A DNA stretch of 64,000 bases, taken from contig CAVTBK010000002.1 in assembly GCA_963732935.1 (NCBI GenBank), positions 611,650 to 675,649 of the forward strand. The letters run 5' to 3'. The DNA is from an uncultured Acidobacteriota bacterium. GTDB lineage: Bacteria; Acidobacteriota; Vicinamibacteria; Fen-336. The notes under the pieces were generated by a model. It was given only the letters and a program-made list of their open reading frames with translations, was not told the origin of the DNA and searched no databases. The position numbers and the translations under genes are program-made. Shown here one piece after another: positions 1 through 20,002 of this stretch (positions within the stretch are counted from its first letter, which is position 1; each line of letters opens with the position of its first letter).

Positions 1-17
1 GAGACGCCACCCGACGT

Positions 18-554
18 CTAGGCTCCGCATCCGAGCACCTTGTAGAGGGTGACCCGATTGGCCCGCCCGGCCAGACGCACCGCCACCAACCCCTGCTGAG
101 CGACCTCGGTGTCTTCGTAGCGCGCCTCCGGGATGATCCCGATCGGGAAGCCGGACGCCTCCAGGAAGCGCGGCGCCTGGTCGCGTGGCTGGTGGATCGG
201 CAGCGGGTGCCCCGCCAGGACGAAACGCCAGGTCCTCCGCTCCGTGTCCAGCACACCGTAGAGCATGGTGAAGTGCTGGCCGGTGCGAACGTCGAAGGGG
301 AACTGCGGCGAGAGGCTCTCGGCCACACGCCGGTGAAGCGACCGGGGATCCATCCGGCGGACGACTGGCATGCGTGGACCGGCATCCGCAGTCGCGTCGA
401 GGAAGCGGGTGTCGAACGGCGCCGGGGGCGTGTAGGGAGTGTGGGGATTGTACGACCCGCCGCCCTCGCTCAGCCTGCGGGATGTCGAGGTACTGGATCG
501 GGAATGAGAATCCGAAGGTCGGCATTCCGACGCGCGTTTCTCCGCAGTCCGCAC
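18..554 (-). pseudogene. PP2C/SpoIIE-family phosphatase domain fragment (C-terminal half only)
   Basis: ORF 18..554. The last ~110 aa fit the SpoIIE/RsbU pattern (FTMLYGVLDT..AGHPLPI..ASGFPIGIIPEARYED). The N-terminal metal-binding part is missing and the first ~60 aa are low complexity. It abuts the distal attC at 591. Confidence 0.4.
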
Positions 555-590
555 ACCGAAACGACAACGCCATCACGCTCCCCCCTTCAG

Positions 591-725
591 GTCCGCAGAA
601 CACCGGCGATAAGCTGCGAGGCGGTGGCCGCGCCTCCCCGCCGTCGCGGCCACGCAGCGGCACCTTCTCGCATTCGTCCGGGTGCCGCTGCGAGCCTCGT
701 CAGCTTCATCGCCTTGTTCGGCGGC
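591..725 (-). repeat. integron attC site (135 bp), distal end of array A
   Basis: Plus strand runs GTCCGCAGAACACCGGCGATAAGCTGCGAGGC...GCCTCGTCAGCTTCATCGCCTTGTTCGGCGGC. The arms are imperfect inverted repeats with GTTCGG/CAGAAC cores and two unpaired bases in the right arm. The same arms occur at 1230, 15260 and 16277. Confidence 0.8.
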
Positions 726-748
726 ACCCTAGCATGGACTCAACAAGG

Positions 749-1216
749 CTATTGCTCTGCGGGTGGCGCAACTGACGCGGCGCTGTGATGCAACACCACC
801 GAGTGAGAGGAGGTGGGTGGCACTTCCGCCCGAACGGCATGTCCCGCGAAACCCTCCTTCTCGAAGGCTAGTTCGTAGACCACGCTGAAGGCATCCGGAT
901 TGGGGTGTGCTAGCGTTCCGAGGGTCGACATGAAGAAGCGGAACGTGAAATGCCCACCATCGTCTGTTGTAGCCCTAAGAGGGCTGGCTTCGGTATCGCC
1001 GCCACTGCGGCGACGCACCTCCAAGGTGACACGGCAGCCGGCTACGGGTTTGCCTGCTTCATCCAGTACCGTGCCGCCGACCGTGTGGCCCATGGTGATG
1101 TTCATGAACCCGTCGCGGCCACTGCCGCCATGTGCACAGCCGATCGCCATGACGAGAGCCGCGAAGAGCGACCCAGCCACTCCCGAATACGGGTTCCCTT
1201 GGAGGCGTTGGCCCAT
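749..1216 (-). CDS. cassette-encoded lipoprotein with carboxypeptidase-regulatory-like (CarboxypepD_reg) fold
   Basis: 155 aa. Lipobox signal ..SLFAALVMAIGC. GTVLDEAGKPVAGCRVTL..TTDDGGHFTF matches the CarboxypepD_reg pattern. Bounded by the attC sites at 591-725 and 1230-1364. Confidence 0.6.
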   Translation of the reverse strand: MGQRLQGNPYSGVAGSLFAALVMAIGCAHGGSGRDGFMNITMGHTVGGTVLDEAGKPVAGCRVTLEVRRRSGGDTEASPLRATTDDGGHFTFRFFMSTLGTLAHPNPDAFSVVYELAFEKEGFAGHAVRAEVPPTSSHSVVLHHSAASVAPPAEQ

Positions 1217-1229
1217 CCTCTACCTCGGT

Positions 1230-1364
1230 GTCCGCCGAACACCGCGGATAAGCTGCGAAGCGGTGCCCGCGTCCATTCTGCCCGCGCGGGCATGAGGCGG
1301 CGCCTCCATACGAGCCACGGTGCCGCCGAAAGCTTCGTCAGCTTCATCCGCTTGTTAGGCGGCG
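1230..1364 (-). repeat. integron attC site (135 bp)
   Basis: GTCCGCCGAACACCGCGGATAAGCTGCGAAGC...GCTTCGTCAGCTTCATCCGCTTGTTAGGCGGCGCC. Includes the classical GTTAGGC core and has the same arm family as the other three sites. Confidence 0.8.
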
Positions 1365-1367
1365 CCA

Positions 1368-1889
1368 CTACCGCGCACCTCGGCGTGTCGCTGTGTGCAC
1401 TGCTGATGTCGTGATGGCCAATCCGTCGGCCAGTGTCGTCTCGGACCGATGCTCCGCCGTGGCAAGGTGAAGCGAGTTCGACAGGATTTGGCTGTCAGCC
1501 GCAAACGACACGCCCAGCATGATGCCGTCGCGCTCGCCGCCGGCCCGCCATATGTTGCCCTCCACTTGCTGCACGCCAAGGGCATGGAACTCCCGGCCGA
1601 AGCGGCTTGCTCGAGCGTGGAACGTGAACACGAGCACCTTCTGCGGAGACTCAACCGGAACGTCGTTGGCAGACATGCTGCACGCAGGAAGCGAAATCGA
1701 ATAGATCGTTCGGCCCTGGAAGCGCACCTCGAGATCCACGACCCGATCCTGTGGACATGGCGCAAACCACTGCCAGACCCTTTGCACGCCCGACGGCGCT
1801 GGCGCGTGCGGAGGGGCCAATGCCACCCCTCTTCCCACGAGCACGACCAACGCCAGCATGCTCACGGTCATCTCGCTCGCCTCGCCCAT
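1368..1889 (-). CDS. cassette-encoded secreted hypothetical protein (first cassette of array A)
   Basis: 173 aa ORF starting 7 nt after the attI/cassette junction. Hydrophobic N-terminus (MTVSMLALVVLVG). The stop lies inside the attC. I recognise no family. Confidence 0.5.
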   Translation of the reverse strand: MGEASEMTVSMLALVVLVGRGVALAPPHAPAPSGVQRVWQWFAPCPQDRVVDLEVRFQGRTIYSISLPACSMSANDVPVESPQKVLVFTFHARASRFGREFHALGVQQVEGNIWRAGGERDGIMLGVSFAADSQILSNSLHLATAEHRSETTLADGLAITTSAVHTATRRGAR

Positions 1890-1895
1890 GAACGC

Positions 1896-2093
1896 GTCCG
1901 CCTAACACGTGATTGAACAGGTCTGTTCAACTCGGTTATCCGACGATATGCAGGTCTGTTCAACATCCCTCGTGCGCCAGAGTCTAGCTGAAGCGAAGTC
2001 CAAGCGGATACGGTAGTTGCCCGCCGGGAGATGCTGTGCGGGCAGGGGCGTTACCCGGTGTTGAACAGACCGGTTCAACTTGGCAGGGGCCAC
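1896..2093 (-). other. attI-like recombination region of integron A
   Basis: Non-coding block between the intI stop (2094) and the junction GTCCGCCTAAC (minus strand GTTAGGCGGAC). Contains palindromes TTGAACAG-GT-CTGTTCAA (1913-1930) and TTGAACAGACCGGTTCAA (2061-2078), and a direct copy of CAGGTCTGTTCAAC (1951-1964). The layout and the TCGGTTATCCGACGATATG / AGAGTCTAGC blocks are conserved at 16988-17173. Confidence 0.65.
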
Positions 2094-2669
2094 TCACAGC
2101 CGATCAGCGGGGCTTCGGACGCCACGTCCACCACGGTTGAGGACGTGCGTGTAGATCATGGTCGTGCTGACGTCGCTGTGGCCGAGAAGCTCCTGAATCG
2201 TGCGCACGTCGTACCCCTCCTCCAGGAGGTGGGTAGCGAAGGAGTGCCGCAGAGTGTGGGGCGTCGCCGGCTTGGCGATGCCGGTTCGGCGGACAGCGTC
2301 CCCCATGGCTTTCTGGATGACGGTTTCATGGAGGTGGTGGCGGTGCTGAGTGCCCGTGTGGGGGTCGAGGTAGAAGCTGGAAGCGGGAAAGACGTACTGC
2401 CACTTCCATTCGCGTGCCGCCCGCGGGTACTCGAGCCCGAGCGCCTCCGGGAGGGGGGCCTCGCCTCGCCCGTGCTCGAGGTCGTCTTGATGAGTCAGTC
2501 GGACGCGTGCGAGGTGATCGCGGAGCTCGCGGCGAAGCGAGTGTGGCAGTGGTGCGACCCGGTCCTTGGCGCCCTTTCCGCGGCGGACTGTCACCTCGTT
2601 GCGATCGAAGTCGATGTCCTTGACCCGGAGGGAGAGGCACTCCAGAAGACGCAGGCGGCGAGGCAGCAT
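2094..2669 (-). pseudogene. intI: integron integrase with in-frame internal deletion (191 aa; lacks the equivalent of residues ~5-176 of the 363-aa copy)
   Basis: Starts MLPR like the full copy, then jumps to [17 protein letters not shown] (full copy: [17 protein letters not shown]). From there it is colinear to an identical C-terminus ..[30 protein letters not shown]. 363-172=191 aa exactly. Confidence 0.85.
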
Positions 2670-3313: not shown

Positions 3314-3359
3314 CGAAGGCCATTATCTAAGAACTGCGATAGATCGGCAGGGGCCGACG

Positions 3360-8386: not shown

Positions 8387-11300
8387 GCCCCCGGTCTCGA
8401 GATCACGCTGCGGGCGAGGGCGGGCAGCAGGAAGAGCGTCGCCGCCGTCGAGAAGATCAGCCCACCGATGACAGCCACCGCGAGCGGTCGCTGCAGCTCG
8501 GAACCAGCTCCCAGGGAAAACGCCAGGGGCAGCAGGCCGAAGATGGTGCAGAGAGTCGTCATCACGATGGGCCGAAGGCGCCGCCGGCCGGCGCGAAGGA
8601 GCGCCAGGCGGAGCCCTTCGCCCGCCTCGATCCGGCCGAGGGCGTTCTCGACAAGGAGGATCCCGTTCTTCACCACGAGCCCGATCAGGAGCACGAGGCC
8701 CATCAGGGAGGACACATTGAGCGGCACTCCGGTCACTCCCAGGAACAGCACGCCGCCAGCCAGCGCCGAGGGCACTGTCAGCAGCACCAGGAGCGCGGCG
8801 CGCGCCGAGCGGAACTGGGCCACGAGCACAGCGAACACGACCAGCACACCGAGGCCCAGGATCAGCATCAGGTCACGGAAGGCCCGTGCCTGGCTCTCGG
8901 CGCGCCCGCCGATCTCGAGCCGGTAGCCTGCGGGCAGAGTGAGCCCGCGGAGCCGCGCCTCAACCGCCCGGGTCGCCGCGCCCAAGTCGCCCCCCTCGAC
9001 GTCCGAGGAGGCCATCGCCGCGGGCGACAGGTTCTCGCGATAGAGGGTGCTCGCCCCCCGCGCCAGGACGGGCCGCGCCAGGCGGGATATGGGCACGGCC
9101 GACGACCCGACAGCGATCGGGAGCGACCCCAAAGCCTGGGGGTCGAAGCGCACGTCGTCGGGGAAGCGGACCCGGACCGGCACCAGCCGGTCGAGCCTCG
9201 GGATGGAGCCGACGATCTCCCCGCGCAGGGCCGTCGCGAGATCGTCCGAGACCTCGGCCGGCGTGAGCCCCGCCCGCGCGGCAGTGTCGGGATCCACGTC
9301 GTAGCGCAGCACCGGTGCTTGATCCTCCACGCCACGGTAGTAGTCCACGAGATGGGGCGTGCCGTCCAGTCGCCGGCCGACCTCGTCGGCGAGGCGGGAC
9401 AGCACAGTCTGGTCCTCCCCCAGGATGCGGATCTCCAGCGGGCGCGGGTTCCCCGAGAGGTCGTTGAGCACGTCCTCCAGGATCTGCACGAACTCGATCC
9501 GCACGCCCGGCATCTGCGACTCGAGCCGCTCACGAATCCGCGACATCACCTCCTCGGCGCCGGGGCGCTGGCCGCGCGGCACCAGCCGGACGGCGATGTC
9601 GCCTCGGTTGAGCTGGGTCGCCGTGACCGGCCCCAGCTCGGCGCCGGTGCGGCGCGTCCAGGTGGCCACGGCGGCGTCGTGGCGCAGGACGTCCTCGATC
9701 CGCAGGGCGGCGGCGTCCGTGGCCTCGAGGGAAGCTCCGGCGGGCAGGAAGTAGTCGAGCACGAACGCACCCTCGTCCATCACCGGCAGGAAACCGGATG
9801 GGATGCGCCTCGCCACGACCCCTCCGGCGAGCACCGCCACCGCGAGCGCGCCCCACGCGAGGCCCGGCCGCCGCAGGAAGCCCCGCAAGGCCAGCCCATA
9901 GCGCTTCTCGAGTCCCGACACCGAGCGCGCCCGCTCCCCCCCGCGTCGGCGGAGGAAGCGGGCCGCGAGCAGAGGGAGGAGAAAGAGGGCGAAGAAGAGG
10001 GAGACGAGCACGGCGGACCCCAGTGTGATGGCCAGCGTCGCGAAGAACTTCCCGGCGAGCCCTGACAAGAAGCCGAGGGGCAGCAGGACCACGACCGTCG
10101 TCACGGTCGTGCCGATGACGGGTGCCATCATCTCGCGCAGGCCTTCGCCCACGGCGACATCGCGCTCGTGACCCTCCTCCAGGTGACGCATGATGGCCTC
10201 GACGACGACGATCGCGTCGTCGATGACGAGCCCGATCGCCACGGCCATGCCGCCCAGCGACATCAGGTTGAGCGTCTGGCCGGCGAGGTCCACGGCAAGG
10301 AAGGTGACGAGGAGCGTGAAGGGCACGGAGAGCGCCGCAACGAACCCGGCGCGGGCGTCGCGGAGGAAGAGGGCGAGAACGCCCACAGTCAGCAGGATCC
10401 CCAGCACGATGGCGTCGCGGATGCCCAGGATCGCTTCGTCGATCAGCAGGCCCTGGTTGTAGACCTCGACGAGCCGGATGTGCTCCGGCAGCGCGAGGCC
10501 GGCCCCGACCTCGCTGATGCCGCGAACGACGTCCGGCGCCGCGGCTCCCGGCATGCGTGACACGCTGACCTGCACCGCGTCGCCGTCGGGCCCGTGGACC
10601 GCCAGCGCGCGGTCGGGGGCCCCTTGGAACACCTGTGCCACGTCCTGGAGCGCCAGGGAGCCGTTGGAACCGGAGCCGAAGCCGGAGCGGCGGAGCTGCT
10701 CCTCGCCGGCGGACGCCGAGGCAGTGACGGTGATCGTCTGTCCTTCGTGGTCGAAACGGCCGACCGCGCTTCTCACCAGGTCGCCCGCGACGCGCTGGGC
10801 CGCCTGCGCCGGCCGGACGTGCTGCGCGGCCAGGCGAGCCGGGTCCAGGACGACCTCGATCTCGCGCGGGTCGCCGCCCACGACCTCGACGCGGCCCACG
10901 CCCGGCACGCGCGAGAACGCAGGGCGCACGATGAACTCCGCGGCCTCCCGTCGCGCGAGAGACGTCCCTCCGACGAGGTTGTACGAGAGGATGGGAAAGT
11001 CGGCCGGTGTGATCTTCTGGGTCTCGATCTCCGTGTCCGCCGGCAGCGCTCCGCGCGCCCGGCTCACGGCGGCGTCGGCGAGCTGCAGACCGCGCCACAT
11101 GTCGGAGCCCTCCGCGAACTGGAGGGCGATCTCGGCCGATCCCCGGATGATGCGCGTCCGGATGCGGCGCACGCCGAGCACGGTCGCAAGCTGCTCCTCG
11201 AGGGGACGCACGACGGCCGCTTGCATCTGCTCCGGCGGGAGGTCGCTCGATCGCGCCACCACGACGATCCGGGGGAACTCCACCTCGGGGTAGATCCCCG

Positions 11301-11415
11301 AGCCGAGCCGCCGGGCCGAGACGAAGCCCGCGAGCATCAGCACTGCGCTCAGCGTGAAGACGAGCGCGCGCTGGCGGACCAAGAGGCCGTAGAGGCCGCC
11401 ACGGTCCGTACTCAC
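8383..11415 (-). CDS. RND efflux transporter permease subunit
   Basis: 1010 aa with the AcrB/CzcA-like 12-TM layout and two large periplasmic loops. The GTG start overlaps the MFP stop. Confidence 0.9.
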   Translation of the reverse strand: MSTDRGGLYGLLVRQRALVFTLSAVLMLAGFVSARRLGSGIYPEVEFPRIVVVARSSDLPPEQMQAAVVRPLEEQLATVLGVRRIRTRIIRGSAEIALQFAEGSDMWRGLQLADAAVSRARGALPADTEIETQKITPADFPILSYNLVGGTSLARREAAEFIVRPAFSRVPGVGRVEVVGGDPREIEVVLDPARLAAQHVRPAQAAQRVAGDLVRSAVGRFDHEGQTITVTASASAGEEQLRRSGFGSGSNGSLALQDVAQVFQGAPDRALAVHGPDGDAVQVSVSRMPGAAAPDVVRGISEVGAGLALPEHIRLVEVYNQGLLIDEAILGIRDAIVLGILLTVGVLALFLRDARAGFVAALSVPFTLLVTFLAVDLAGQTLNLMSLGGMAVAIGLVIDDAIVVVEAIMRHLEEGHERDVAVGEGLREMMAPVIGTTVTTVVVLLPLGFLSGLAGKFFATLAITLGSAVLVSLFFALFLLPLLAARFLRRRGGERARSVSGLEKRYGLALRGFLRRPGLAWGALAVAVLAGGVVARRIPSGFLPVMDEGAFVLDYFLPAGASLEATDAAALRIEDVLRHDAAVATWTRRTGAELGPVTATQLNRGDIAVRLVPRGQRPGAEEVMSRIRERLESQMPGVRIEFVQILEDVLNDLSGNPRPLEIRILGEDQTVLSRLADEVGRRLDGTPHLVDYYRGVEDQAPVLRYDVDPDTAARAGLTPAEVSDDLATALRGEIVGSIPRLDRLVPVRVRFPDDVRFDPQALGSLPIAVGSSAVPISRLARPVLARGASTLYRENLSPAAMASSDVEGGDLGAATRAVEARLRGLTLPAGYRLEIGGRAESQARAFRDLMLILGLGVLVVFAVLVAQFRSARAALLVLLTVPSALAGGVLFLGVTGVPLNVSSLMGLVLLIGLVVKNGILLVENALGRIEAGEGLRLALLRAGRRRLRPIVMTTLCTIFGLLPLAFSLGAGSELQRPLAVAVIGGLIFSTAATLFLLPALARSVISRPGA

Positions 11416-12488
11416 CGCTTGGCGTCCACCGGCATGCCGTCGACGATCCCGACCACGTCCTCGACGACGACCTCGTCCCCCGCCCCGAGGCCGGAGGAGA
11501 TCTCGACGCGCCCGCCCTCGGTGATTCCCGTCGAGACGGTCCTCACCGAAGCCTTGCCGCCCGCCGCGACCACTACCTCGGCATGACCCTCAGGCCCGTG
11601 CCGCACGGCCGACTCCGGCACAGTGAGCGCGCCCTTTCTCTCCCTCACGACGATGCGCACGTCGACAGGCGTCCCCAGGACCAGCGCCGCTGCCGCGTCG
11701 CTCACGGCCAGGCGCACCTCGCCCGCTCCCGAAGCAGGGTCGACCGATCGGGCCACCCGTGTGACGCGTGCCGCGCGCGCGGCCGTCGTCGCGTCGCGCA
11801 CCGAGACCTCGGCGGGCGCGCCCGGACGGATCTCCTGCAGGCTCTCGGCGACGGCGTCCGCGGCGATCTCGACGGGCCACTGCGCGGCGAGCTCCACGAC
11901 ACCCGTGGCGGGCGAGCCGTCCACCGGCTCGCCCGCCCGACGCACGACCTTGACGACGACACCGTCGAAGGGGGCTCGAAGCTCGGCCCAGCCCCGGCGT
12001 CGCTGGGCCGTGGCGAGAGCCGCACGCGCCTCGGCCAGTCCGGACTCGGCAGCCGTCGCGGCGGCCTCGTCGGCCTCGGCCTCCTGACGCGAGGCCACGC
12101 CCTTGTCGAGCAGGTTGCGCGTGCGTACGGCGGCCTTGGCGCGGAACTCGGCTTCCGCCGCCGCCCGCTTCTCCGCCGCCTCGGCGGCCCGAAGCGCGTC
12201 ATCGAGCGGCGCGGGATCGACCCGCGCGACCACCTCCCCCTTGCGCACCACTTCGCCCTGGCGGACCGCGACGTCCAGGAGCACCCCCGCGACCTGCGGC
12301 GCCAGGGTCGCGTCGCGGTCCGGCGGAGGCACGACCCGGCCGAAAAGCCTCACCCACTCCCGCACCGTCTCCGTGCGGGCCGGAGCCACCCGCACCGGAA
12401 TCGGCGCGGATGTCGCCTCGCCCTTGGTTCCGGAGGCGCAGCCTGTGCCGGCAAGGAGGCCGGCGACGACGAGCATCCACTTGTCCAT
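11412..12488 (-). CDS. RND periplasmic adaptor (membrane fusion) lipoprotein
   Basis: 358 aa from MDKWMLVVAGLLAGTGCAS (lipobox), with HlyD-like coiled-coil and beta-barrel regions. The ORF track entry is N-terminally over-extended. Confidence 0.85.
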   Translation of the reverse strand: MDKWMLVVAGLLAGTGCASGTKGEATSAPIPVRVAPARTETVREWVRLFGRVVPPPDRDATLAPQVAGVLLDVAVRQGEVVRKGEVVARVDPAPLDDALRAAEAAEKRAAAEAEFRAKAAVRTRNLLDKGVASRQEAEADEAAATAAESGLAEARAALATAQRRRGWAELRAPFDGVVVKVVRRAGEPVDGSPATGVVELAAQWPVEIAADAVAESLQEIRPGAPAEVSVRDATTAARAARVTRVARSVDPASGAGEVRLAVSDAAAALVLGTPVDVRIVVRERKGALTVPESAVRHGPEGHAEVVVAAGGKASVRTVSTGITEGGRVEISSGLGAGDEVVVEDVVGIVDGMPVDAKR

Positions 12489-12490
12489 CT

Positions 12491-13693
12491 TCACGGAGCT
12501 TCCTCGCCTTCGATCTCGAGCAGGTCCGCGTAGGCCGCCCCCCACGCCTCGAGGGCATCGGCGCGCAGCAACGTCGCCTCGGCAAGGGCCCGCTCGGCGT
12601 CGAGCACGCGGAAGATGTCGACCCGACCCTCGCGGTACGCTAGGCTGGTCAGCTCCGCTGCTTCCCGCGCCGCAGGCAGCGCCTCGCCGTCGACGGCTTC
12701 GAACCGAAGCCGCGCCGCCCGCGCCGCGTGCCAGGCGGACTCGCCCGCCTCCATGGCGAGCCTGCGCTCGCGCTCCACGGCCGCCTCCTCTCCCTCCCGG
12801 TCCGCCCGTGCCACGGCCACGGCCGCACCTTTCCCGAAGGGCACGCTGACGTCGAGACCGACCCACTTGTCGGTGCCGGGCTGAGTGGGGTCGTTCCAGT
12901 TCGCACCTCCGGCCAGGGTGAGGTTCGGCCAGCGAAGGCGCCGCTCCAGCCCCAGCCGGGCCACGGCCTGATCCAGCCGCGCCTGCTCCACGCGGAGGGT
13001 AGGCGACGCTTGGGCGACCCGATCCAGGTAGCCATCCAATGCTGGCTCGGCGACCGGCCGCGCAGCGGGCCCGGCGGTCGAGACGGAGGCGCCCGGGCCG
13101 AGCCCCATCAGCAGGCCCAGGCGTGCCGCGGCTGCCGCGCTCTGCTCCTGCGCCGCTCCCGACTCCGAGCGGGCGAGTGCCGCGTCGGCGGAGGCGCGGA
13201 CGTGATCGAGTCTCGAGACCCGTCCCTCTTCGAGCATCGACTGGACCGCGCTCAGGTTCCGCGCCGCCCTCTCGCTGCGATCGGCGACGGCTCGGGCGCG
13301 TTCCTCGGCGCTCGCCAGGGCGAACCAGGCCGCGCGCAGCTCGCGCCGCGCCTGCAGAAGCGTCTCCGCCCGCGACAGCGCGGCCACGACCACCCCGGAC
13401 CGGGCGGCGCCCACGCGTGCGCCCCGCTCGAGCGGCAGCGGGAAAGCGCCCGACAGCGACGCGTGCGCCGACACTGAGTAGCTCGAGAAGGACACCGAGC
13501 CGTCCGCGAGCGCGCCCGCGACGCGAACGGCGGCATCGGCCGCGCGCTCTGCCGCGCGCGCCACGACCATCTCGGGCGCTCGCTCCGCCGCCGCCAGGGC
13601 CTGTTCGAGGCTGACGCGCACCTGCGCCGCGGGCACCGTTGCTTGTGCCGGGATCGCCGCAGGCAGAGCGCAGATCAGCAATGCGATCACCAT
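12491..13693 (-). CDS. TolC-family outer membrane efflux protein
   Basis: 400 aa with a signal peptide and two OEP-type repeats rich in coiled-coil Ala/Arg/Glu. First gene of the efflux operon. Confidence 0.8.
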   Translation of the reverse strand: MVIALLICALPAAIPAQATVPAAQVRVSLEQALAAAERAPEMVVARAAERAADAAVRVAGALADGSVSFSSYSVSAHASLSGAFPLPLERGARVGAARSGVVVAALSRAETLLQARRELRAAWFALASAEERARAVADRSERAARNLSAVQSMLEEGRVSRLDHVRASADAALARSESGAAQEQSAAAAARLGLLMGLGPGASVSTAGPAARPVAEPALDGYLDRVAQASPTLRVEQARLDQAVARLGLERRLRWPNLTLAGGANWNDPTQPGTDKWVGLDVSVPFGKGAAVAVARADREGEEAAVERERRLAMEAGESAWHAARAARLRFEAVDGEALPAAREAAELTSLAYREGRVDIFRVLDAERALAEATLLRADALEAWGAAYADLLEIEGEEAP

Positions 13694-13709
13694 CGCTCCT
13701 CCCTGCGTA

Positions 13710-13750
13710 ACCCTAGGGCATAGGCCTTAACGAAAGCTGAACGGCTGGCC
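13710..13750 (-). promoter_or_regulatory. putative response-regulator box plus -10 element upstream of the efflux operon
   Basis: Minus strand: GGCCAGCC GTTCAG CTTTC GTTAAG GCCTATGCCC TAGGGT, followed by TACGCAGGGAGGAGCG ATG (SD and start of the OMP gene). Confidence 0.5.
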
Positions 13751-13869
13751 TTGACGCACAGGATACGCGGCGAGCCTCGTGGGATCATGAACGACGCTCG
13801 TTGGCAGGCTGACGACGGCGCCGCGCGCGACCGTGGGGGGCGCCGGGGCTTGCCTCTTGGAGGTCGATC

Positions 13870-14931
13870 ATGCGTGCCCGAGACACAATGCTTGCCGCCT
13901 CTGTCGTGGTCCTCGTTCAACTAGGCCTTTCTTCCACCGGCGTCGCTCAGGACCAGCCCTCGAACGTCGTTCCCTCCAGCTCCGCCGTTGCGGCCATCCC
14001 GCTCCCGGGCGCGCCTCACGGGGGGCTCTTCCTCGATTACCTGGCCGTGGACCGAGCGCATCACCGGGTGTGGGTGCCCGCGGGTGCCACCGGAAGGGTC
14101 GACGTGATCGACACCGAGACCGGGCGGCTGCAGCCGATCGAGAAGTTCCCGACATCGGAGATCGAGCGTCGGGGCCGGAAGATGTCGATCGGCCCGAGCT
14201 CCGCGACGGTCGGCGATGGCTACGTCTACGTTGGCAACCGCGCCGACTCGACCGTATGCGCCGTGAATGCGGTGAGCCTCGCCCGGGAAGGCTGCGTCAC
14301 CATTCCGTCGAGCCCGGACGGACTCGCCTATGTCGCGAGCGCACACGAGGTGTGGGTCACGACCCCGCGAACCAAGTCGCTCTATGTGCTCGACGTCTCG
14401 AAGCCCTCGGCGCCGCGCGTAGCCGGCAGTCTCGTTCTCGAAGGGGAGCCCGAAGGCTACGCCGTCGACGACGCCCACGGCGTCTTCTACACGAACCTCG
14501 AGGACAAGGACCGCACGCTGCGGATCGACGTGAAGACGCGGAAAGTCTCGTCGACGTGGCTGCCGGCTTGTGGCGAGGGCGGGCCAAGGGGGCTGGCGGT
14601 GGAGCCGGCCGACCAGATTCTCGTCGTCGCCTGCCCGGACCACGTCGAGACCATGGACGTGCGCCACGACGGCAAGATCCTCTCGAAGCTCGACACGGGC
14701 GAGGGCGTCGACAACATCGACTACCTGCCCGCGTCGCGGTCGCTCTATGTCGCCGCGGGCAGGGCGGGGACGCTGACCGTCGCTCACCTGGACGACAAGG
14801 GCGCCCTCTCCAAGACTGCCTCGAGCCCCACGTCGCGGGGCGCCCGGAACGCGGTGGCCGACGACAAGGGCGTCGCCTACGTCGCCGACGGGCCGGAGGG
14901 GAGGATTCTCGTGATTGCACCCGCGCACTGA
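13870..14931 (+). CDS. secreted beta-propeller protein (YncE/YVTN-like repeats)
   Basis: 353 aa with a signal peptide. Repeated ..VWV../..YV.. blade-like segments (GRVDVIDTETG, GYVYVGN, EVWVTTP, LYVLDV, VFYTNL, LYVAAG, VAYVADG). Confidence 0.65.
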   Translation: MRARDTMLAASVVVLVQLGLSSTGVAQDQPSNVVPSSSAVAAIPLPGAPHGGLFLDYLAVDRAHHRVWVPAGATGRVDVIDTETGRLQPIEKFPTSEIERRGRKMSIGPSSATVGDGYVYVGNRADSTVCAVNAVSLAREGCVTIPSSPDGLAYVASAHEVWVTTPRTKSLYVLDVSKPSAPRVAGSLVLEGEPEGYAVDDAHGVFYTNLEDKDRTLRIDVKTRKVSSTWLPACGEGGPRGLAVEPADQILVVACPDHVETMDVRHDGKILSKLDTGEGVDNIDYLPASRSLYVAAGRAGTLTVAHLDDKGALSKTASSPTSRGARNAVADDKGVAYVADGPEGRILVIAPAH

Positions 14932-15006
14932 CCGAGCCGTACCGGTCACCGTGAGCCTGCCGCCAGGGCTCCGCACCGCAATAGCTCACCGCCACAGATC
15001 TCGGCA

Positions 15007-15034
15007 CGCGACTGCTCCCTCGGCGGCAGTCGCG
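15007..15034 (+). terminator. GC-rich hairpin downstream of the propeller gene
   Basis: Perfect 9-bp stem CGCGACTGC / GCAGTCGCG with a 10-nt loop. No U-tract follows, so terminator function is uncertain. Confidence 0.3.
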
Positions 15035-15259
15035 CGCTGCCTCGCCCTCACTCCGACGACCGACTGTCCTCGACACGAAGCAAACAACGGTGGCCTCCCC
15101 TTGAGTGGCTTCCGTGCGTTTCCAGCCGGTCGGCCGCCTTCAGACGATCAAAGCGCAGCTCACGACCGCAGGACGACGTCAGCACAGCCAGGCTCAGCGC
15201 TGCGACGTGTGCGTGTCCATCCCCGTTCACCGGCCGGCCAACGCGACGCCCTGCCTCAG

Positions 15260-15338
15260 GTCCGCCCAACACCGGGGATAAGCTGCGAAGCTCCGAAGTT
15301 CACCAGGCTTCGTCAGCTTCATCCCCTTGTTCGGCGGC
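15260..15338 (-). repeat. integron attC site (79 bp)
   Basis: GTCCGCCCAACACCGGGGATAAGCTGCGAAGC TCCGAAGTTCACCAG GCTTCGTCAGCTTCATCCCCTTGTTCGGCGGCC. The full structure folds as R-box, spacer, L-box with unpaired C and T in the right arm. Confidence 0.85.
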
Positions 15339-15376
15339 CTCGCAGTCCGGCCGTGACCTTCCTTTAGGGCCATCGT

Positions 15377-16258
15377 CTATTTCTTGCTCACGACCTCTGC
15401 AATGCACATGTACTCCAGCCCGTGTGTGTCGGACAGAACTCTCAATCCCTCTTGGCGCACATACTCACGGGCGCTGTTGTTGGGGAAGCCAAAGACCACA
15501 GGCTCACCCCATCGCGCATACACGTGATGTGGATTGTTTACAGCAGGATTATCCGCGCCAAAGTAGTCGAAGGCGATTCGGCTACCCGACGCGGAATGGT
15601 CCCGCACGAAGTGCAGTGTGTCCTTCACCGCCGAGTCGGGCAGATAGTAGGTGACACCTTCCCACAGAAAGAAGGTCTTCTGTTGTTCAGAGTAACCTGC
15701 GTTGCGGAGTTGTTCTAGGAGATTGTCCTTCGTGAAGTCCATCGCTACAAATGACACGTTCGATGGTATCGCTTCCGAAATTTCGCCCAACCTGCGTTTC
15801 TTGTATGCCTGCGTTGGACCATAGTCCACTTCCATGACGCGGACATCGCCAAGCTGAGCGTGAAAGCGATATGCGCGGCTATCGAAACCAGCTCCGAGCA
15901 CGACTACTTGTGTAGCGCCGTTCTGAAGGGCATCCAGCAATGCCGCATCAAACCGTTTCGTCCGGTAAGTCATCACCGCGACAGGAAGGTGTGGACCGAG
16001 TTGCTTCATGGCGCTGTCGAAATCAAGGTCTAACGCATCCATCGGAAGGTCGCGGAGCACAGCGCGTTCACGTGGCCCGAGAAGCCTGATGGCGAGATAG
16101 TCGGGATTGCGCCGCTGAGGATCAGGGTCTTTGGAGCCGATAGCTCGCGCGGCGGTTACGTAGATCGCTGTCTTAGAGGGAAGCCCGGTCTCTACCGCCC
16201 TCAATGTCCCCGCCAAGCACAGGGTGATGGTTGCGCACGCAGCGCTTTTCTTTGGCAT
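15377..16258 (-). CDS. cassette-encoded class I SAM-dependent O-methyltransferase (leucine carboxyl methyltransferase / TIGR00027-like), secreted
   Basis: 293 aa from MPKKSAACATITLCLAG (signal). AARAIGSKDPDPQRRNPDYLAIRLLGP.. and VVVLGAGFDSRAYR are typical of the family. Flanked by attC sites. Confidence 0.75.
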   Translation of the reverse strand: MPKKSAACATITLCLAGTLRAVETGLPSKTAIYVTAARAIGSKDPDPQRRNPDYLAIRLLGPRERAVLRDLPMDALDLDFDSAMKQLGPHLPVAVMTYRTKRFDAALLDALQNGATQVVVLGAGFDSRAYRFHAQLGDVRVMEVDYGPTQAYKKRRLGEISEAIPSNVSFVAMDFTKDNLLEQLRNAGYSEQQKTFFLWEGVTYYLPDSAVKDTLHFVRDHSASGSRIAFDYFGADNPAVNNPHHVYARWGEPVVFGFPNNSAREYVRQEGLRVLSDTHGLEYMCIAEVVSKK

Positions 16259-16276
16259 CGGTCCTAAGCCCTCAAG

Positions 16277-16425
16277 GTCCGCAGAACACTGGCGATAAGC
16301 TGCGAGCCGGTACCCGCGGTTTCGAACCTTCGCGGGTACGAGGCGGCGCCTCCGCCCACGCCACTTGTGCAATCCAGGCCGGGTGCCGCCGAGAGGCTCG
16401 TCAGCTTCATCGCGTTGTTCGGTGG
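16277..16425 (-). repeat. integron attC site (149 bp)
   Basis: GTCCGCAGAACACTGGCGATAAGCTGCGAGCC...GGCTCGTCAGCTTCATCGCGTTGTTCGGTGG. Lies directly after the doc stop (16438). Confidence 0.8.
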
Positions 16426-16437
16426 CCGGGCACGATC

Positions 16438-16745
16438 ACTTGCTCAGTGGCCGAACGTGCCCAGAGAGCCAGGCGACGAGCTCCGCCCGCGACTGCTTGC
16501 CTGCCGCCAAGCGGAGCCACCCGCTTGTTCCCGTCCACGAACGGGTGATTGCTGACCAGCGAGTAGGCCAGTGCGGCAGCCTTCTCGACCAGCGACGGGT
16601 ACAGGTCCTGAGCGCCGAACGCGCCGAGAGGCTGCGCGACAGCAGACTCCAGAAGCCCCAGATCGCGAAGACCCCACGGTCCGCCCGACTCTTGCATCAG
16701 CCGGTGATGAAGAGCCAGGACCTCAGCCAGGGTCAGATAGCGCAT
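16438..16745 (-). pseudogene. doc: Doc (Fic-fold) toxin with internal deletion and frameshift
   Basis: [48 protein letters not shown] is Doc-like. Right after GNKR the frame is lost. The Doc-like C-terminus [18 protein letters not shown] is in the +1 frame, and about 35 aa that normally lie between are missing. Confidence 0.7.
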
Positions 16746-16940
16746 CTACGCCAAGCGCCGGTACAGCTCCGCGTTCTTGACGAGCACCCGCGCCGTAGCT
16801 GCTTCGAAGTCCGCCGCCTGCTTGCCGGCCAGGTCCGCCAAGGCCGCCCGAGCGAGTTGCTCAAGGCCAATGCCCAGTCGATCGGCGACCTTCCGAAGCT
16901 CGCTGGCTTCCTCGTCAGGCAGTTCGACGAGAAGGTTCAT
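16746..16940 (-). CDS. Phd/RHH-type antitoxin of the doc cassette
   Basis: 64 aa. Its stop abuts the doc start (TAGATG). Its size and position match the antitoxin of Doc modules. Confidence 0.6.
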   Translation of the reverse strand: MNLLVELPDEEASELRKVADRLGIGLEQLARAALADLAGKQAADFEAATARVLVKNAELYRRLA

Positions 16941-16987
16941 GCAGCGATTCTCGCTCTGCCCGTGGCGCTCCGCAACACCTCACCAGG

Positions 16988-17173
16988 TCCACCGAACACG
17001 CGATTGAACGGGTCCGCTCAAGTCGGTTATCCGACGATATGCCGACCCGCTCAACATGACCTCCGGTGAGAGTCTAGCCGAACGGAAGACGAATCCGAGG
17101 AGGAAGTTGCTGAGAAGGCGGAGCGGGTGCTGGCCCAGATTGAACAGGTCTGTTCATCGTGGCGACCGCGCGG
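16988..17173 (-). other. attI-like recombination region of integron B
   Basis: The junction GTCCACCGAAC is followed by TTGAACGG-GT-CCGCTCAA, TCGGTTATCCGACGATATG, CCGACCCGCTCAAC, AGAGTCTAGC and TTGAACAGGTCTGTTCA just before the intI stop. Order and spacing match 1896-2093. Confidence 0.65.
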
Positions 17174-18265
17174 TCAGAGGCGATCCGCTGGACTCCGGAC
17201 GCCCCGCCCGCCGCGGTTGAGGACGTGGGTGTAGATCATGGTCGTGCTCACGTCGCTGTGGCCCAGGAGCTCTTGGATCGTCCTGACGTCGTACCCTTCT
17301 TCGAGGACGTGGGTTGCGAACGAGTGGCGAAGCGTGTGCGGTGTTGCCGGCTTGCGGATGCCCGTGCGGCGCACCGCCTCCCCCATGGCCTTTTGGATGA
17401 CGGTCTCGTGGAGGTGGTGACGGCGTTGCACGCCTGTCCGTGGATCGGGATAGAAACTGGAGGCCGGGAAGACGTACTGCCACTTCCACTCGCGGCCAGC
17501 GCGGGGGTACTTGAGGGCAAGTGCCTCCGGAAGCAGGGCCTCGCCTCGCCCGTGCTCGAGGTCGTCCTGGTGAATCCGGCGCACCTCCTCGACGTGCGCT
17601 TGAAGCCCCTTGCGAATCGACTGCGGCAGCGGCGCCACGCGGTCCTTCGCGCCTTTCCCTCGGCGCACCGTTACCTCGTTGCGCTCGAAGTCGATGTCCT
17701 TCACCCGCAGCGAGAGACCTTCGAGGAGACGGATGCCCGTACCGTAGAGCGGCCAGCAGACGAGCCGGGGTACGCCGTCCACGGCTTCGAGAAGGGTCCT
17801 CACCTCGGTCTGGGTGAGCACCACCGGAAGACGCTTCGGGGCTTTCGCGCGCTCGATCCCTTCGATGGGCCCGATATCCTTCTCGAGGACGCGGAAAAGC
17901 AGGAGGAGGGCGCAGAGCGCCTGGTTCCGGGTCGCCGCGCTGACCCTCTCGTCGATAGCCAAGTGGGAGAGGAAGCAGCGGATCTCGTCCGGGCCGATGT
18001 CGTCGACGCTTCGCCGGGCGTAGAAGGTGAGGAAGCGCCGAGCCCAGTAGAGGTAGGCCTTCTCCGTCCGGACGCTGTAGTGGGCTGTCCGGATCCCTCT
18101 TCGAAGGCACTCGAGAGCGGCATGTGGCGCTTCCCCGGCTGGTCGCTGTGGACGAGCTGCTGGCGTTGGGAAGGGGATCGCGAGGCCGGGGGGAGGCGTG
18201 AGGGCCTCGAGCGGCGTGGCGGATCGGAGGGGAAACCGGCGCAGGACTTGGGGGCGGGGCAGCAT
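17174..18265 (-). CDS. intI: integron integrase IntI (363 aa)
   Basis: Tyrosine recombinase with the IntI-specific insertion [38 protein letters not shown]. Box I is TGIRLLE. C-terminus is [25 protein letters not shown]. Confidence 0.92.
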   Translation of the reverse strand: MLPRPQVLRRFPLRSATPLEALTPPPGLAIPFPTPAARPQRPAGEAPHAALECLRRGIRTAHYSVRTEKAYLYWARRFLTFYARRSVDDIGPDEIRCFLSHLAIDERVSAATRNQALCALLLLFRVLEKDIGPIEGIERAKAPKRLPVVLTQTEVRTLLEAVDGVPRLVCWPLYGTGIRLLEGLSLRVKDIDFERNEVTVRRGKGAKDRVAPLPQSIRKGLQAHVEEVRRIHQDDLEHGRGEALLPEALALKYPRAGREWKWQYVFPASSFYPDPRTGVQRRHHLHETVIQKAMGEAVRRTGIRKPATPHTLRHSFATHVLEEGYDVRTIQELLGHSDVSTTMIYTHVLNRGGRGVRSPADRL

Positions 18266-18329
18266 GGCGGAAACTACCTCCCGGGTCGGGCGCCGCAGGT
18301 CCGTTTCCCTCGAGCGTGCCGCGGGCCTT

Positions 18330-19089
18330 GCTCCGCGTGCGTGTGGCGCGGGAAGCAGCGCCCGAGAACCTTGCCGCTCGCCACCTCGAGGGCGGCGAAG
18401 AGGCTCGTCGTACCGTGTCGCTTGTAGTCGTGCGTCATGCGCGCCGGCAAGCCCGGTCTGAGAGGGAGGATCGGCTGCGTTCGGTTCAACGCCTGGATCT
18501 GCGACTTCTCGTCCACGCAGAGCACCAGGGTCTTCTCAGGCGGGTCGAGGTAGAGCCCGACGATGTCCGCGAGCTTCTGCTCGAACGCAGGATCCTTGCT
18601 GAACTTGAAGGTCGTAGTCCGATGCGGCTGCAGGTCATATTTGCGCCAGATCCGGTGGACGGTGGACGGGCTGAGACCAACCTCCCTCGCCAAGCGACGA
18701 CAGCTCCAGTGAGTGGTCGCCTTCGGTGTCGTGAGCGTCTTGGCCACGACCGATTGCTCCTTCGCGTCACTGATGCGCCGCGGGCGGCCGGAGCGCTCCC
18801 GTGTCTTGAGTGCCGCCAGTCCCCCTTCCGAGTAGCGCTGCCGCCACTGGCAGACTGTGGCGGGCGTCACCTCCAACCGGCGTGCCGTGGCTCTCACAGC
18901 CTCACCTTGGCCGGCTGCGAGCACGATCCGCGCCCGCAGCGCCCACTGCTGCGGCATGGTGGGACATCTGAGCCACTGCTCCAGGGTCCGGCGGTGCGTT
19001 CGCGCGATCACGAACGGCGGTGCCGTAAAGGGCATACGGCATCATCTCACAAGTCTCGATCGTGTTCTATTGACTTTAGACACAGCACA
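18330..19089 (-). mobile_element. IS630-family insertion sequence remnant (transposase truncated after the first DDE aspartate)
   Basis: ORF 18274..19035. N-terminal HTH, then ..LVLCVDEKSQIQALNRTQPILPLRPG..DYKRHGTTSLFAAL typical of IS630/DDE_3. Homology ends near RCFPRHTH, so the second D, the E and the distal end are missing. Confidence 0.8.
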
Positions 19090-19254
19090 CTAGGCCTCTT
19101 CCCAGGCGGCGCAGAGGGCCCCGCATGTGTGCGCCTCTGGCGGCCACTCGGTCCACGGCTGCCATCGCCTCCCGACGATGCTCGTCTCGTTGCCGTCGAT
19201 GCGGATGGGCTCGTACTGCTCCTCGTCCTCCTCTTGCGAGACCAGAAACTCCAT
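19090..19254 (-). CDS. conserved small acidic protein, copy B (54 aa; central part out of frame relative to copy A)
   Basis: MEFLVSQEEDEEQYEPIRIDGNETSIVG..TCGALCAAWEEA. Its middle matches copy A only in another frame (EAMAAVDRVAARGAH versus EARNAADRVATESHQ). Confidence 0.45.
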   Translation of the reverse strand: MEFLVSQEEDEEQYEPIRIDGNETSIVGRRWQPWTEWPPEAHTCGALCAAWEEA

Positions 19255-19257
19255 GAC

Positions 19258-20002
19258 CCGTGCGCGCGACGCTCGAGCGGAAGAGCGGCGAGTCACGCTC
19301 GCGGGCGATCCCGGCCGCCTCGACGTAGGCGTCGAGGTAGTCCCCCGCCCGGTGATGGACGGGCACCTGGTGGTACTTCCCGCCCTTCTCGTGCAGACGA
19401 AACCAGGATCTCTTCCCCTGGGTGTAGTAGTCCTTGACGTCCATCTTCACGACGGCACCCACGCGCGCGAAGGAGTAGGTCATCACCGCCAGGAACGCCC
19501 GATCACGGAGGCCGACGACCCCGGAGACGTCGATCGAGTCGAAGAGATCCCGTGTCTCCTCCTCCGAGAGGACCGGCGTCTTCCCCACCTCGACGACGTG
19601 CTTCGGTCCCCGGACGGAAGACGCCGGGTTATGCGGAAGGACACCGCCCGTCACGAGGTAATCGAAGAGCCGCCGGATCGCGGCGAGGTGCTGTTTCACC
19701 GAGGGGGCCGCGAGCTCCTTCTGCAGCTCCTCAATGTAAGCCGCGACGAGCACGGGCTCGATCTTTTCGAGCGGGAGGCCGTGCGTCTCGCACCAGGCCG
19801 TGAAGCGCGCGACGGCGAAGCCGTAGGCCCGGCGCGTCTTCTCATTCCGGATCTGCGCCGTGAAGAACTCGAGAAACCGCCGCGAGGCCCGCTCCCCCGC
19901 CCGCGTCACGAGCGCCGGGAGCGCCACGCCTCGCGGAAGGGTCACGTCCCCTGAGCCGATCCTCACGAGGCCTTCGCCCTCGGCCACCCTCGCCTCCCCC
20001 AT
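19258..20002 (-). pseudogene. tyrosine recombinase, N-terminal ~248 aa only (3' part deleted)
   Basis: ..RRFLEFFTAQIRNEKTRRAYGFAVARFTAWCE..SVKQHLAAIRRLFDYLV..GLRDRAFLAVMTYSFARVGAVV..LHEKGGKYHQVPVHH..PLFRS. The sequence then runs straight into the small ORF start. The catalytic HxxR/Y region is absent. Confidence 0.75.

Follow-up and report, generated by a model that had tools for sequence, protein, structure and literature searches.

The 64-kb stretch of DNA analysed here, hereafter the window, contains a complete integron; an integrase gene, an attI site and a cassette array bounded by attC sites were all confirmed, with the integrase gene transcribed toward attI and the cassettes. This gene, intI-1 (17174..18265, minus strand; stop codon TGA at 17176-17174), is full-length and encodes an integron integrase of 363 amino acids. 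In a profile search the product scored 418 bits against TIGR02249 'integron integrase' (cut-off 265), residues 51-363 matching positions 2-315 of the 315 in the profile, and both PF13495 and PF00589 were matched as well. The alignment to VchIntIA (PDB 2A3V) is unbroken over residues 53-363 (E 3e-78) and passes without a gap through the IntI-specific insertion, which ends ...RRHHLHE; the alignments of XerA and XerC to the same protein are broken in two at around residue 226. The catalytic R, K, HxxR, H and Y are those of VchIntIA (aligned as GIRLLE, GKGAKDR, HTLRHSF, LGHSD and IYTHV). It is clear from the TIGR02249 score, and from the alignment that crosses the insertion, that the sequence-only reading was right to call an IntI with the integron-specific insertion and a catalytic C-terminus; judged on its sequence, IntI-1 is confirmed as an IntI-family tyrosine recombinase with the additional domain and a complete catalytic set. 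A homologue of equal length (P0002) is 77% identical to it, and the best IntI match in a scan of genome contigs has 60% identity.

An IS630-family transposase gene (18274..19035, minus strand) lies around 10 bp upstream of the intI-1 ORF; it is 3'-truncated, matching only positions 2-207 of 299 in NF033545, and the conserved 5' region left in front of intI-1 is some 60 bp long. This region, which includes the ribosome binding site (RBS), is kept in three platforms. The truncated IS630 leaves only these ~60 bp, and expression of intI-1 may be weak or even absent. Tyrosine-recombinase pseudogenes, together with the IS630 remnant, adjoin intI-1. No attC was found upstream of the gene with the covariance model R1 described below. 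The motif CGGACC, which stands some 45 bp in front of the intI ATG, was considered as the remnant of an attC R', which would make intI itself cassette-like; it was ruled out, having neither the GTT core nor a hairpin.

The attI site and its point of crossover

An attI site had been proposed after the stop codon of intI, and this was borne out by comparative junction mapping and by conservation in relatives. The site, attI-1 (16997..17173, minus strand), is a non-coding platform of 177 bp that follows the intI-1 stop, and the non-coding block terminates in GTGTTCGGTGGAC (16999-16987). The crossover maps between G16997 and T16996 of GTGTT/CGGTGGAC, 177 bp past the stop. It is placed there, firstly, because the homology between this integron and a second one in the window (16987-17716 against 1896-2636) breaks at the core, as does the homology with the 77%-identical relative L086, which ends at 16995. 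Secondly, the start of cassette 1, TTCGGTGG, is complementary to its own R'', CCACCGAA; cassette 5' ends show 1 mismatch in total when compared to their own R'' and 5 when compared to the neighbouring R'. Furthermore, the attI-1 block is conserved in L086 and in three other related loci (L081, L083 and L085).

Directly past the intI stop lies repeat A (17140..17157, minus strand), a palindrome of the form ATGAAC-N6-GTTCAA and a candidate IntI-binding site, which is kept in attI-2 of the second integron (2061-2078) and partly in L085, L083 and L081. The block GCTAGACTCT (17069..17078, minus strand) is identical in attI-1, attI-2 (1979-1988) and L086; the TAGACT of this conserved block could, speculatively, be the -10 of a cassette promoter. 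Two further repeats on the same strand (17004..17054), B (17042-17054, a half site) and C (17004-17021, TTGAGCGGACCCGTTCAA), flank the invariant CATATCGTCGGATAACCGA. The GTTCAA repeats of attI are candidates for IntI binding. A sigma-70 scan gave no sigma-70-type promoter in 14900-18500, and no terminator-like site was found on the minus strand between intI-1 and the cassettes; since there is no such terminator, transcription of the cassettes probably starts at a promoter within attI or the 3' part of intI, or else reads through from intI.

attC sites, cassettes and the second integron

As Rfam has no attC model, a covariance model (R1) was built from 25 attCs, all from other genomes; covariation in its seed alignment was 0.341, compared to 0.118 after shuffling. 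The Rfam scan itself gave no family at gathering score in the whole window. R1 gave four matches in the 64-kb window, all of them on the minus strand, at 30-38 bits and with E-values from 1.5e-7 to 1.9e-5; these are 15264-15335 (38.1 bits, fold z -7.2), 16281-16423 (33.2 bits, z -4.4), 595-722 (33.4 bits, z -9.0) and 1234-1360 (30.0 bits, z -5.8). The next-best match in the window scored 14 bits; read on the plus strand, the best site reached 11.6 bits, and R1 found no attC in the window beyond the four. In DNA folding, each is an imperfect hairpin (z -4.4 to -9.0) in which two 1-nt bulges, C and T, lie 6 bp apart in the plus-strand 3' arm, and the arms are near-identical among the four. The attC sites that had been read at 16277-16425 and 15260-15338 are therefore recovered on the minus strand within a few nucleotides, and the unpaired C and T that had been described on the plus-strand 3' arm of all four sites are present in 4/4 folds. 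The folds and the strand of the R1 matches also agree with the earlier deduction that the plus strand is the folded bottom strand and the minus strand the cassette top strand; above 14 bits, R1 matched the predicted strand only.

Similar results were obtained with a structure-based detector, which found the same four attCs in the window and none in a reversed-sequence control of it. When R''/R' complementarity was required the detector missed the doc attC, since the R' in an array derives from the next cassette; the final version has no strict requirement of this kind, and a k-mer prefilter was used for the runs on related loci. Nine singletons from those runs (L004 8872, L017 4511, L030 5343, L031, L041, L044 14121, L060, L066 and L078) were un-attC-like and were deemed false positives, in line with the 13 detector hits given by reversed-sequence controls; the four in loci that were also searched with R1 (L017 4511, L031, L044 14121 and L066) were not reported by it. 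For the core motif GTTNNGNGGAC there are 8 occurrences where 1.9 would be expected, and 6 of the 8 are integron sites. The matches at 2284 and 29548, both on the plus strand, were rejected as attC by R1 and are at chance level, one of them lying inside the delta-intI coding sequence described below.

Cassette 1 of this integron (16287..16996, minus strand, 710 bp) consists of a small ORF, a doc/Fic remnant and the attC at 16281-16423. It had been read as an intact phd-doc pair, which it is not: the doc/Fic toxin gene (16407-16745, minus strand) is internally deleted and frameshifted, such that PF02661 (Fic/DOC) covers residues 3-77 only, TIGR01550 is matched only at positions 50-76 of its 122, and the C-terminal part of Doc runs on in a different frame. 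The small ORF in the antitoxin position (16746-16940, minus strand) has no Phd/YefM match and no family above threshold, its only match being a sub-threshold one to a FitA-like RHH (E 0.079). Cassette 2 (15270..16286, minus strand, 1017 bp) has a GC content of 56.7%, compared to 70.8% for the window, and ends in the attC at 15264-15335. Here the methyltransferase that had been claimed was upheld; the ORF (15377-16261, minus strand) encodes a SAM-dependent methyltransferase of the LCM/TIGR00027 family, with 193 bits to TIGR00027 and 151 bits to PF04072. The array end (14950..15269, minus strand) has a cassette-type 5' start, TTGGGCGGACC, with neither an attC nor a supported ORF, and is adjoined by a convergent beta-propeller gene (13870-14931, plus strand). 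The integron cassettes carry no cargo for resistance or virulence.

The sequence-only reading had overlooked a second co-directional integron at the start of the window (1-2687, minus strand), whose attI is homologous to that of the first and whose array counts two or three cassettes. Its integrase gene, delta-intI-2 (2094..2669, minus strand), carries an in-frame internal deletion in which approximately residues 7-177 are absent and the RBS and ATG region are kept. The remainder is 87% identical in amino acids to residues 178-363 of IntI-1, with an alignable 5' region, and comparison of the two genes gives a dN/dS of 0.067 at a dS of 1.25. attI-2 (1906..2093, minus strand) is homologous to attI-1, with the crossover in GTG/TTAGGCGGAC (1908-1896). 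The first cassette (1240..1905, minus strand) has the 5' end TTAGGCGG, in agreement with its own R'', CCGCCTAA, and contains an ORF of 173 aa (1368-1889), for which no Pfam family was matched, and the attC at 1234-1360. The second (601..1239, minus strand) contains an ORF of 155 aa (749-1216), with a weak CarboxypepD_reg-like match under the Pfam cut-off, and the attC at 595-722. The third unit (1..600, minus strand) has a cassette-type start, TTCTGCGGACC, followed by a SpoIIE/PP2C gene fragment (PF07228 positions 36-118 of 192); no attC was found in it up to the window edge.

Layout in relatives and in named systems

In both integrons intI and the attC top strands are on the minus strand, and the array is downstream of the intI 3' end. 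The strand of the attCs, the presence of the additional domain and the side of intI on which relatives carry their arrays are all consistent with the complete, co-directional integron that had been claimed. By its layout the element is of the known "inverted integrase" type, which has been recognised since 2007 and is routine in IntegronFinder-based pipelines (PMC13323075, methods; PMC4889954; PMC3607928; PMC3575428). The co-directional layout is thus real and of a known type, but the rarity attached to it in the earlier reading, that of a few lineages, was overstated, since it is common in the non-proteobacterial relatives surveyed. Arrays are co-directional in 15 related loci, from Acidobacteriota, Gemmatimonadota, Eisenbacteria, Nitrospirota and unclassified metagenome contigs, and in every informative non-proteobacterial relative surveyed except the Methylomirabilis locus L028; proteobacterial relatives have the classical layout. 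No opposite-strand attCs were found downstream of intI in any surveyed locus. In the closest relatives (IntI identity 63-77%) the array is on the same side of intI as here, and the conserved attI block is absent upstream of intI in close relatives. In L085, five co-directional attCs follow an intI whose product is 66% identical to IntI-1, and the attCs of L085 and L083 are near-identical in their arms to those of the window. In a neighbour-joining tree of IntI, midpoint-rooted, without support values and with no Xer outgroup or Treponema/Chlorobi reference, the window groups with the co-directional loci, apart from the classical proteobacterial clade. Inverted IntIs have been described as a sub-clade within the soil/freshwater clade (PMC8352920), and the inverted group as paraphyletic (Cury 2016, PMC4889954). 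The find is sound but ordinary, the layout being usual in non-proteobacterial relatives of IntI-1.

The carrying contig is 768,731 bp long; the IS630 remnant is the only such element linked to the integron, and no tni or Tn402 genes are. Being chromosomal, with a homogeneous attC family and without a transposition module, this is a sedentary chromosomal integron. The array is small, unlike those of textbook sedentary chromosomal integrons.

The "inverted integrase" integrons of the Treponema denticola type (the "inverted integrase group" of Boucher 2007) are likewise chromosomal and sedentary, and have an attI R box like the attC R', as here (PMC3607928, PMC4889954, PMC13323075). They differ in that the arrays here are very short and the relatives of IntI-1, in a tree without a Treponema IntI, are MAGs of Acidobacteriota, Gemmatimonadota, Eisenbacteria and Nitrospirota, not Spirochaetes. 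IntI1 of class 1 integrons belongs to the same IntI family (51% identity over IntI-1 residues 51-363), and betaproteobacterial IntIs are 53-60% identical to IntI-1. The attC architecture (R''-L''...L'-R', with two extrahelical bases 6 bp apart) and the G/TT crossover are shared with class 1 and soil/freshwater proteobacterial integrons. In contrast to these, intI here is reversed relative to attI and the array, attI being 3' of intI rather than 5'; at the first extrahelical position C is the usual base here, in place of the G of classical relatives, and unlike class 1 integrons there is no Tn402 and there are no resistance cassettes. VchIntIA (PDB 2A3V) can be aligned end-to-end with IntI-1, including the additional domain and the catalytic residues. 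The V. cholerae superintegron also has a homogeneous attC family in its array and a toxin-antitoxin cassette, which here is a remnant; there, however, VchIntIA is divergent from an array of ~180 cassettes, whereas here the integrase is co-directional with 2-3 cassettes.

Working model and alternatives

The locus is very probably a small chromosomal "inverted integrase" integron of a high-GC (71%) uncultured bacterium. In such an element IntI-1 would bind double-stranded attI, which starts right past its own stop codon, and would also bind the folded bottom (plus) strand of the attC hairpin of a cassette. One strand would be exchanged at G/TT (16997/16996), and incoming cassettes would land just behind the 3' end of intI, their ORFs reading in the same direction as intI; excision would come about by recombination between two attC sites. 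Of the two cassettes present in integron 1, one is a toxin-antitoxin unit in decay and the other a low-GC methyltransferase of foreign origin. Integron 2, an older paralogue 15 kb away, has a crippled integrase, and its array could be serviced in trans only, by IntI-1. The short array, the pseudogene and the broken sister integrase are compatible with a decaying system.

It is possible that the platform is structurally complete but inactive, a dead relic in which the intI-1 promoter was lost to IS630 and the arrays are frozen leftovers. The truncated IS630 directly upstream of intI-1, the doc remnant, the lack of an attC in the final unit of either array, the internal deletion in delta-intI-2 and the presence of only 2-3 cassettes in each array would fit this. 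We nevertheless consider it unlikely: the IntI-1 ORF is intact with its catalytic residues complete, the dN/dS of 0.067 against the paralogue indicates long-term purifying selection, the attC hairpins and the cassette-specific complementarity of R'' and cassette start are intact, and the conserved ~60 bp with the RBS has been kept in three platforms.

Alternatively, intI of a classical divergent integron could have been flipped by a local IS-mediated inversion. The IS630 remnant and tyrosine-recombinase pseudogenes do adjoin intI, and there is a precedent in the one-off inversion of intI in a class 1 integron of Acinetobacter baumannii 1656-2 (Cury 2016, PMC4889954). Such an event is very improbable here, as the long-diverged (dS 1.25) integron 2 is laid out in this way too, its homologous attI likewise following the intI stop, the same layout is seen in L081, L083, L085 and L086 in other genomic contexts without IS630, and the arrangement is clade-wide. 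A CALIN (an attC cluster without its own integrase) beside an unrelated intI, the real attI and array being elsewhere or lost, is scarcely credible even though such clusters are common (PMC4889954) and two attC clusters lie within the window, for both start precisely at a conserved attI block that runs directly on from an intI 3' end, their attC family is that of the closest IntI relatives (as in the near-identical arms of L085 and L083), and the window holds no further attC.

The "inverted integrase" reading could be taken further, with the co-directional layout ancestral in the soil-type clade and the classical one derived in Proteobacteria, the cassettes promoterless and in one operon with intI, and the array of delta-intI-2 kept in trans; this extended version seems to us rather improbable. 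If the operon were real, cassette expression and shuffling would be switched on together.

Established knowledge of integrons is unchanged by this find. To our knowledge, there is hardly any work that characterises the attI sites or the cassette promoters of a less-studied group, the inverted-integrase integrons of non-proteobacterial soil lineages. The locus adds one more well-delimited integron of this kind from such a lineage, with attI and cassette boundaries that are precise to the base. Further, the two diverged platforms and the four relatives allow a comparative definition of attI, namely three repeats of the GTTCAA type plus the core GTGTT/NGGNGGAC, which could guide a recombination assay.

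The integrase and the strand of its attC sites

The integrase gene intI-1 (17174-18265, minus strand) encodes a 363-aa protein, IntI-1, that matches the NCBIfam model TIGR02249 (integron integrase) over the entire profile with 418 bits (cut-off 265); PF13495 and PF00589 are both present. Its alignment with the Vibrio cholerae integron integrase (PDB 2A3V) runs from residue 53 of IntI-1 to the C-terminus (E 3e-78) and spans the IntI-specific insertion free of gaps (...RRHHLHE in IntI-1, LKEKYPNAPYEFRWHYLFP...RRHHMNE in 2A3V); the two proteins share identical catalytic motifs (R, K, HxxR, H and Y). The alignments of XerA and XerC to IntI-1 are split in two at this insertion, and IntI1 is 51% identical to IntI-1. 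The profile score, the unbroken 2A3V alignment and the identical motifs bear out the sequence-only reading, which had described an IntI with the integron-specific insertion and a catalytic C-terminus.

All four candidate attC sites form long imperfect hairpins (z from -4.4 to -9.0 relative to dinucleotide-shuffled sequence); in each, two 1-base bulges, C and T, lie 6 bp apart in the plus-strand 3' arm. A detector was run on AAC...GTT pairs spaced by 48-160 nt: it folds their arms using DNA parameters and accepts only stems of 16 bp or more with two 1-nt bulges on the bottom-strand 3' arm. It returned exactly these four sites from the 64 kb and none from the reversed window sequence, which served as a control. 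A covariance model, R1, was built on 25 attC sites from other genomes only, both classical (intI divergent from the array) and co-directional (array on the intI strand, 3' of intI), with the window and its closest relatives left out; the seed alignment is 82.7% paired, with covariation of 0.341 against 0.118 when shuffled. With filters off, R1 gave four full-length matches in the window (E 1.5e-7 to 1.9e-5): the attC sites of cassette 2 (15264-15335, 38.1 bits) and cassette 1 (16281-16423, 33.2 bits) of the first integron, and those of the second (595-722, 33.4 bits) and first (1234-1360, 30.0 bits) cassettes of a second integron. The fifth-ranked match in the window has only 14 bits, and the best site scores 11.6 bits on the plus strand; no attC was found upstream of intI. 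Since all four matches are on the minus strand, this is the cassette top strand, with which the ORF orientation agrees. The covariance-model check proposed with the sequence-only reading thus returned matches on the predicted strand and, with the bulge position and the ORF direction, upholds its assignment of the plus strand as the folded bottom strand.

attI and the cassettes of the first integron

Three independent lines place the predicted attI-1 crossover at G16997|T16996 in GTGTT|CGGTGGAC, 177 bp past the intI stop. The two copies of the platform are 77% identical in nucleotide sequence (17716-16987 in copy 1, 2636-1896 in copy 2) and their homology ends at the GTT core, while in a 77%-identical relative, locus L086, homology extends from 16 bp 5' of the ATG to 16995, with none beyond. 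The first bases of a cassette originate from its own circular attC, and the cassette starts here agree with their own R'' more closely than does the adjacent array R' (R'' and R' are the outer attC boxes), with 1 mismatch against 5 in total: the doc cassette start TTCGGTGG pairs with its own R'' CCACCGAA, those of the second integron pair as TTAGGCGG/CCGCCTAA and TTCGGCGG/CCGCCGAA, and the methyltransferase cassette has the one mismatch. Finally, the attI block is also kept in the related loci L085, L083 and L081 (63-67% IntI identity), the common element being ...GACCYGTWCAAT-N4-GTGTT|NGGCGGAC. The breakpoints, the own-R'' match and this conservation confirm that attI lies directly 3' of the intI stop, as had been proposed. 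attI contains three repeats of GTTCAA type, of which two are 18-bp palindromes (TTGAAC-N6-GTTCAA) and the third is a half site, along with two invariant blocks, GCTAGACTCT and CATATCGTCGGATAACCGA; these are candidate IntI-binding sites or promoter elements.

Cassette 1 (16996-16287, minus) holds a Doc/Fic ORF (16407-16745, minus) and, in the antitoxin position, an ORF of 64 aa. The Doc/Fic ORF matches its family only up to residue 77, and the C-terminal sequence expected of it is found in a different frame; doc has therefore undergone an internal deletion and a frameshift and is a remnant. The 64-aa ORF has no above-threshold family, its sole match being to a FitA-like RHH family (E 0.079) and not to Phd/YefM, so the phd-doc cassette of the sequence-only reading is not an intact pair. 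Its methyltransferase cassette stands: the product of cassette 2 (16286-15270, minus) is a SAM-dependent methyltransferase of the LCM/TIGR00027 family (193 bits). At 56.7% GC, falling locally to near 53%, this cassette stands out from the window (70.8%) in a 71% GC genome; the difference points to a foreign origin and indicates that the cassette was recently acquired from another host. Past the last attC come about 320 bp that start like a cassette, lack an attC and abut a convergent gene.

A second integron, recombination and expression

The window contains an additional integron (1-2687, minus), beyond the one described earlier. Its integrase gene, delta-intI-2 (2669-2094, minus), lacks approximately residues 7-177 through an in-frame internal deletion; its RBS/ATG region is retained, as is a C-terminal part of 186 residues with 87% identity to IntI-1. 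It is followed by attI-2 (1906-2093, minus; crossover 1906/1905), homologous to attI-1, by two cassettes (1905-1240 and 1239-601, minus), each ending in an attC, and by a third unit, which continues into part of a SpoIIE gene. The two intI copies, with a dN/dS of 0.067 and a dS of about 1.25, are old paralogues or were acquired separately; they evolved as functional genes, and the deletion came late.

Ordinary integron recombination is the best-supported mechanism. Double-stranded attI would recombine with the folded attC bottom strand: one strand would be exchanged at G|TT and replication would resolve the exchange, and the geometry alone would put new cassettes 3' of intI. A truncated IS630-family transposase (18274-19035, minus; up to profile position 207 of 299) stops some 10 bp short of the intI-1 ORF, so that a conserved leader of only about 60 bp is left; the native promoter of intI may have been displaced as a result. 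Together with the doc pseudogene and the broken integrase of the second integron, this remnant would fit a system that is no longer active, a real possibility though less likely than not. For cassette expression, the candidates are read-through from intI, no terminator-like site having been found between intI and the cassettes, and an unrecognised attI promoter (TAGACT block); no sigma-70-type promoter was found. A recent local inversion as the origin of the layout is ruled out, since the co-directional arrangement occurs twice, in diverged copies. Ordinary chromosome separates the two integrons over 12 kb (8383-13693, minus). It encodes a two-component system, a beta-propeller gene and an RND efflux pump made up of an inner-membrane pump, a membrane-fusion protein and an outer-membrane protein of the OEP family, so the two arrays are not one interrupted array.

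Several other features lie near the integrons. An RRCGGACCYG element about 45 bp 5' of the intI ATG is conserved in three diverged platforms (18281-18320, 2687-2720 and L086 at about 760-800); it resembles the GCGGACC tail of cassette starts, lacks the GTT core and hairpin, and may be a regulatory site. Degenerate Xer-like tyrosine recombinase genes (3323-4357 and 19076-20002, both minus), 25% identical to each other and each with a partial Pfam match and an out-of-frame C-terminus, lie 0.7-0.8 kb upstream of each intI; on the contig of P0003, a 69%-identical IntI relative, intI is directly preceded on its own strand by an intact 331-aa tyrosine recombinase and a TfoX_N gene, and a tyrosine recombinase may be a recurrent intI neighbour in this lineage. 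A small ORF, MEFLVSQEEDEEQYE.IRIDGN.TSIVG..., occurs integron-proximally at 4410-4646 and 19090-19296 (both minus) on an 83-bp repeat (4510-4592 and 19172-19254, 90% identical), with no convincing family match. Directly upstream of delta-intI-2, outside the cassette array, is a HigB-like (Gp49/DUF891) toxin gene (3089-3313, minus) that appears to meet an early stop, with a 104-aa ORF (2725-3037, minus; no Pfam match) in the antitoxin position.

Co-directional integrons in related genomes

A scan of genome contigs gave 80 related loci (50-60% identity), and a protein search with contig look-ups gave closer ones (63-77%). The detector found 89 matches in the related loci against 13 in reversed controls. 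A few non-attC-like matches aside, these fall into two classes: classical, with attC on the strand opposite to intI and upstream of it (mainly Proteobacteria, one Methylomirabilis and one unclassified locus), and co-directional, with attC downstream on the intI strand; none was downstream on the opposite strand. When R1 was run on 38 loci, every match was on the intI strand in 15, namely L001, L017, L025, L039, L052, L055, L063 and L077 (Acidobacteriota), L003 (Eisenbacteria), L050 (Gemmatimonadales), L067 (Nitrospiraceae), L054, L081, L083 and L085; only L044, L028 and L074 were classical. An array on the 3' side of intI is therefore also seen in the related genomes of L081, L083 and L085. 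As their first extrahelical base, attC sites of co-directional arrays mostly have C (of 38 sites, the window's four included, 20 are C/T and 7 are G/T), and those of classical proteobacterial arrays mostly have G (31 of 40 are G/T).

In L077, from a Thermoanaerobaculia MAG, at least 17 very uniform 60-nt attC sites (9883-16774; 17 by R1) lie downstream of a co-directional intI; large co-directional arrays are therefore found outside Proteobacteria. attC sites on the intI strand flank intI on both sides in L025 (130-2944, 10353-11497) and L017 (6875), which suggests possible tandem co-directional integrons or arrays, as in the window.

The layout is of a known type. An 'inverted integrase group' is given as one of three IntI groups in a passage of PMC3575428 citing Boucher 2007, and in Treponema integrons intI is transcribed toward attI (PMC3607928). 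The inverted group came out paraphyletic in Cury et al. (PMC4889954), Ghaly et al. placed inverted IntIs as a sub-clade within a soil/freshwater clade (PMC8352920), and integrons of Acidobacteriota and Gemmatimonadota are already on record (PMC8618304). The integron anatomy of the sequence-only reading was right, but with the type already described and 15 related loci co-directional, its view of the layout as rare has to be given up; the window integron is a further example of the inverted layout. In a neighbour-joining IntI tree, rooted at the midpoint and lacking both outgroup and support values, the window groups with L081-L085 in a co-directional, non-proteobacterial part, and the classical loci fall together in a clade made up mostly of Proteobacteria. 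The window, L083 and L085 also have in common an attC sequence family, GATGAAGCTGACGA...CGCAGCTTATC, as would be expected of a sedentary chromosomal integron lineage.
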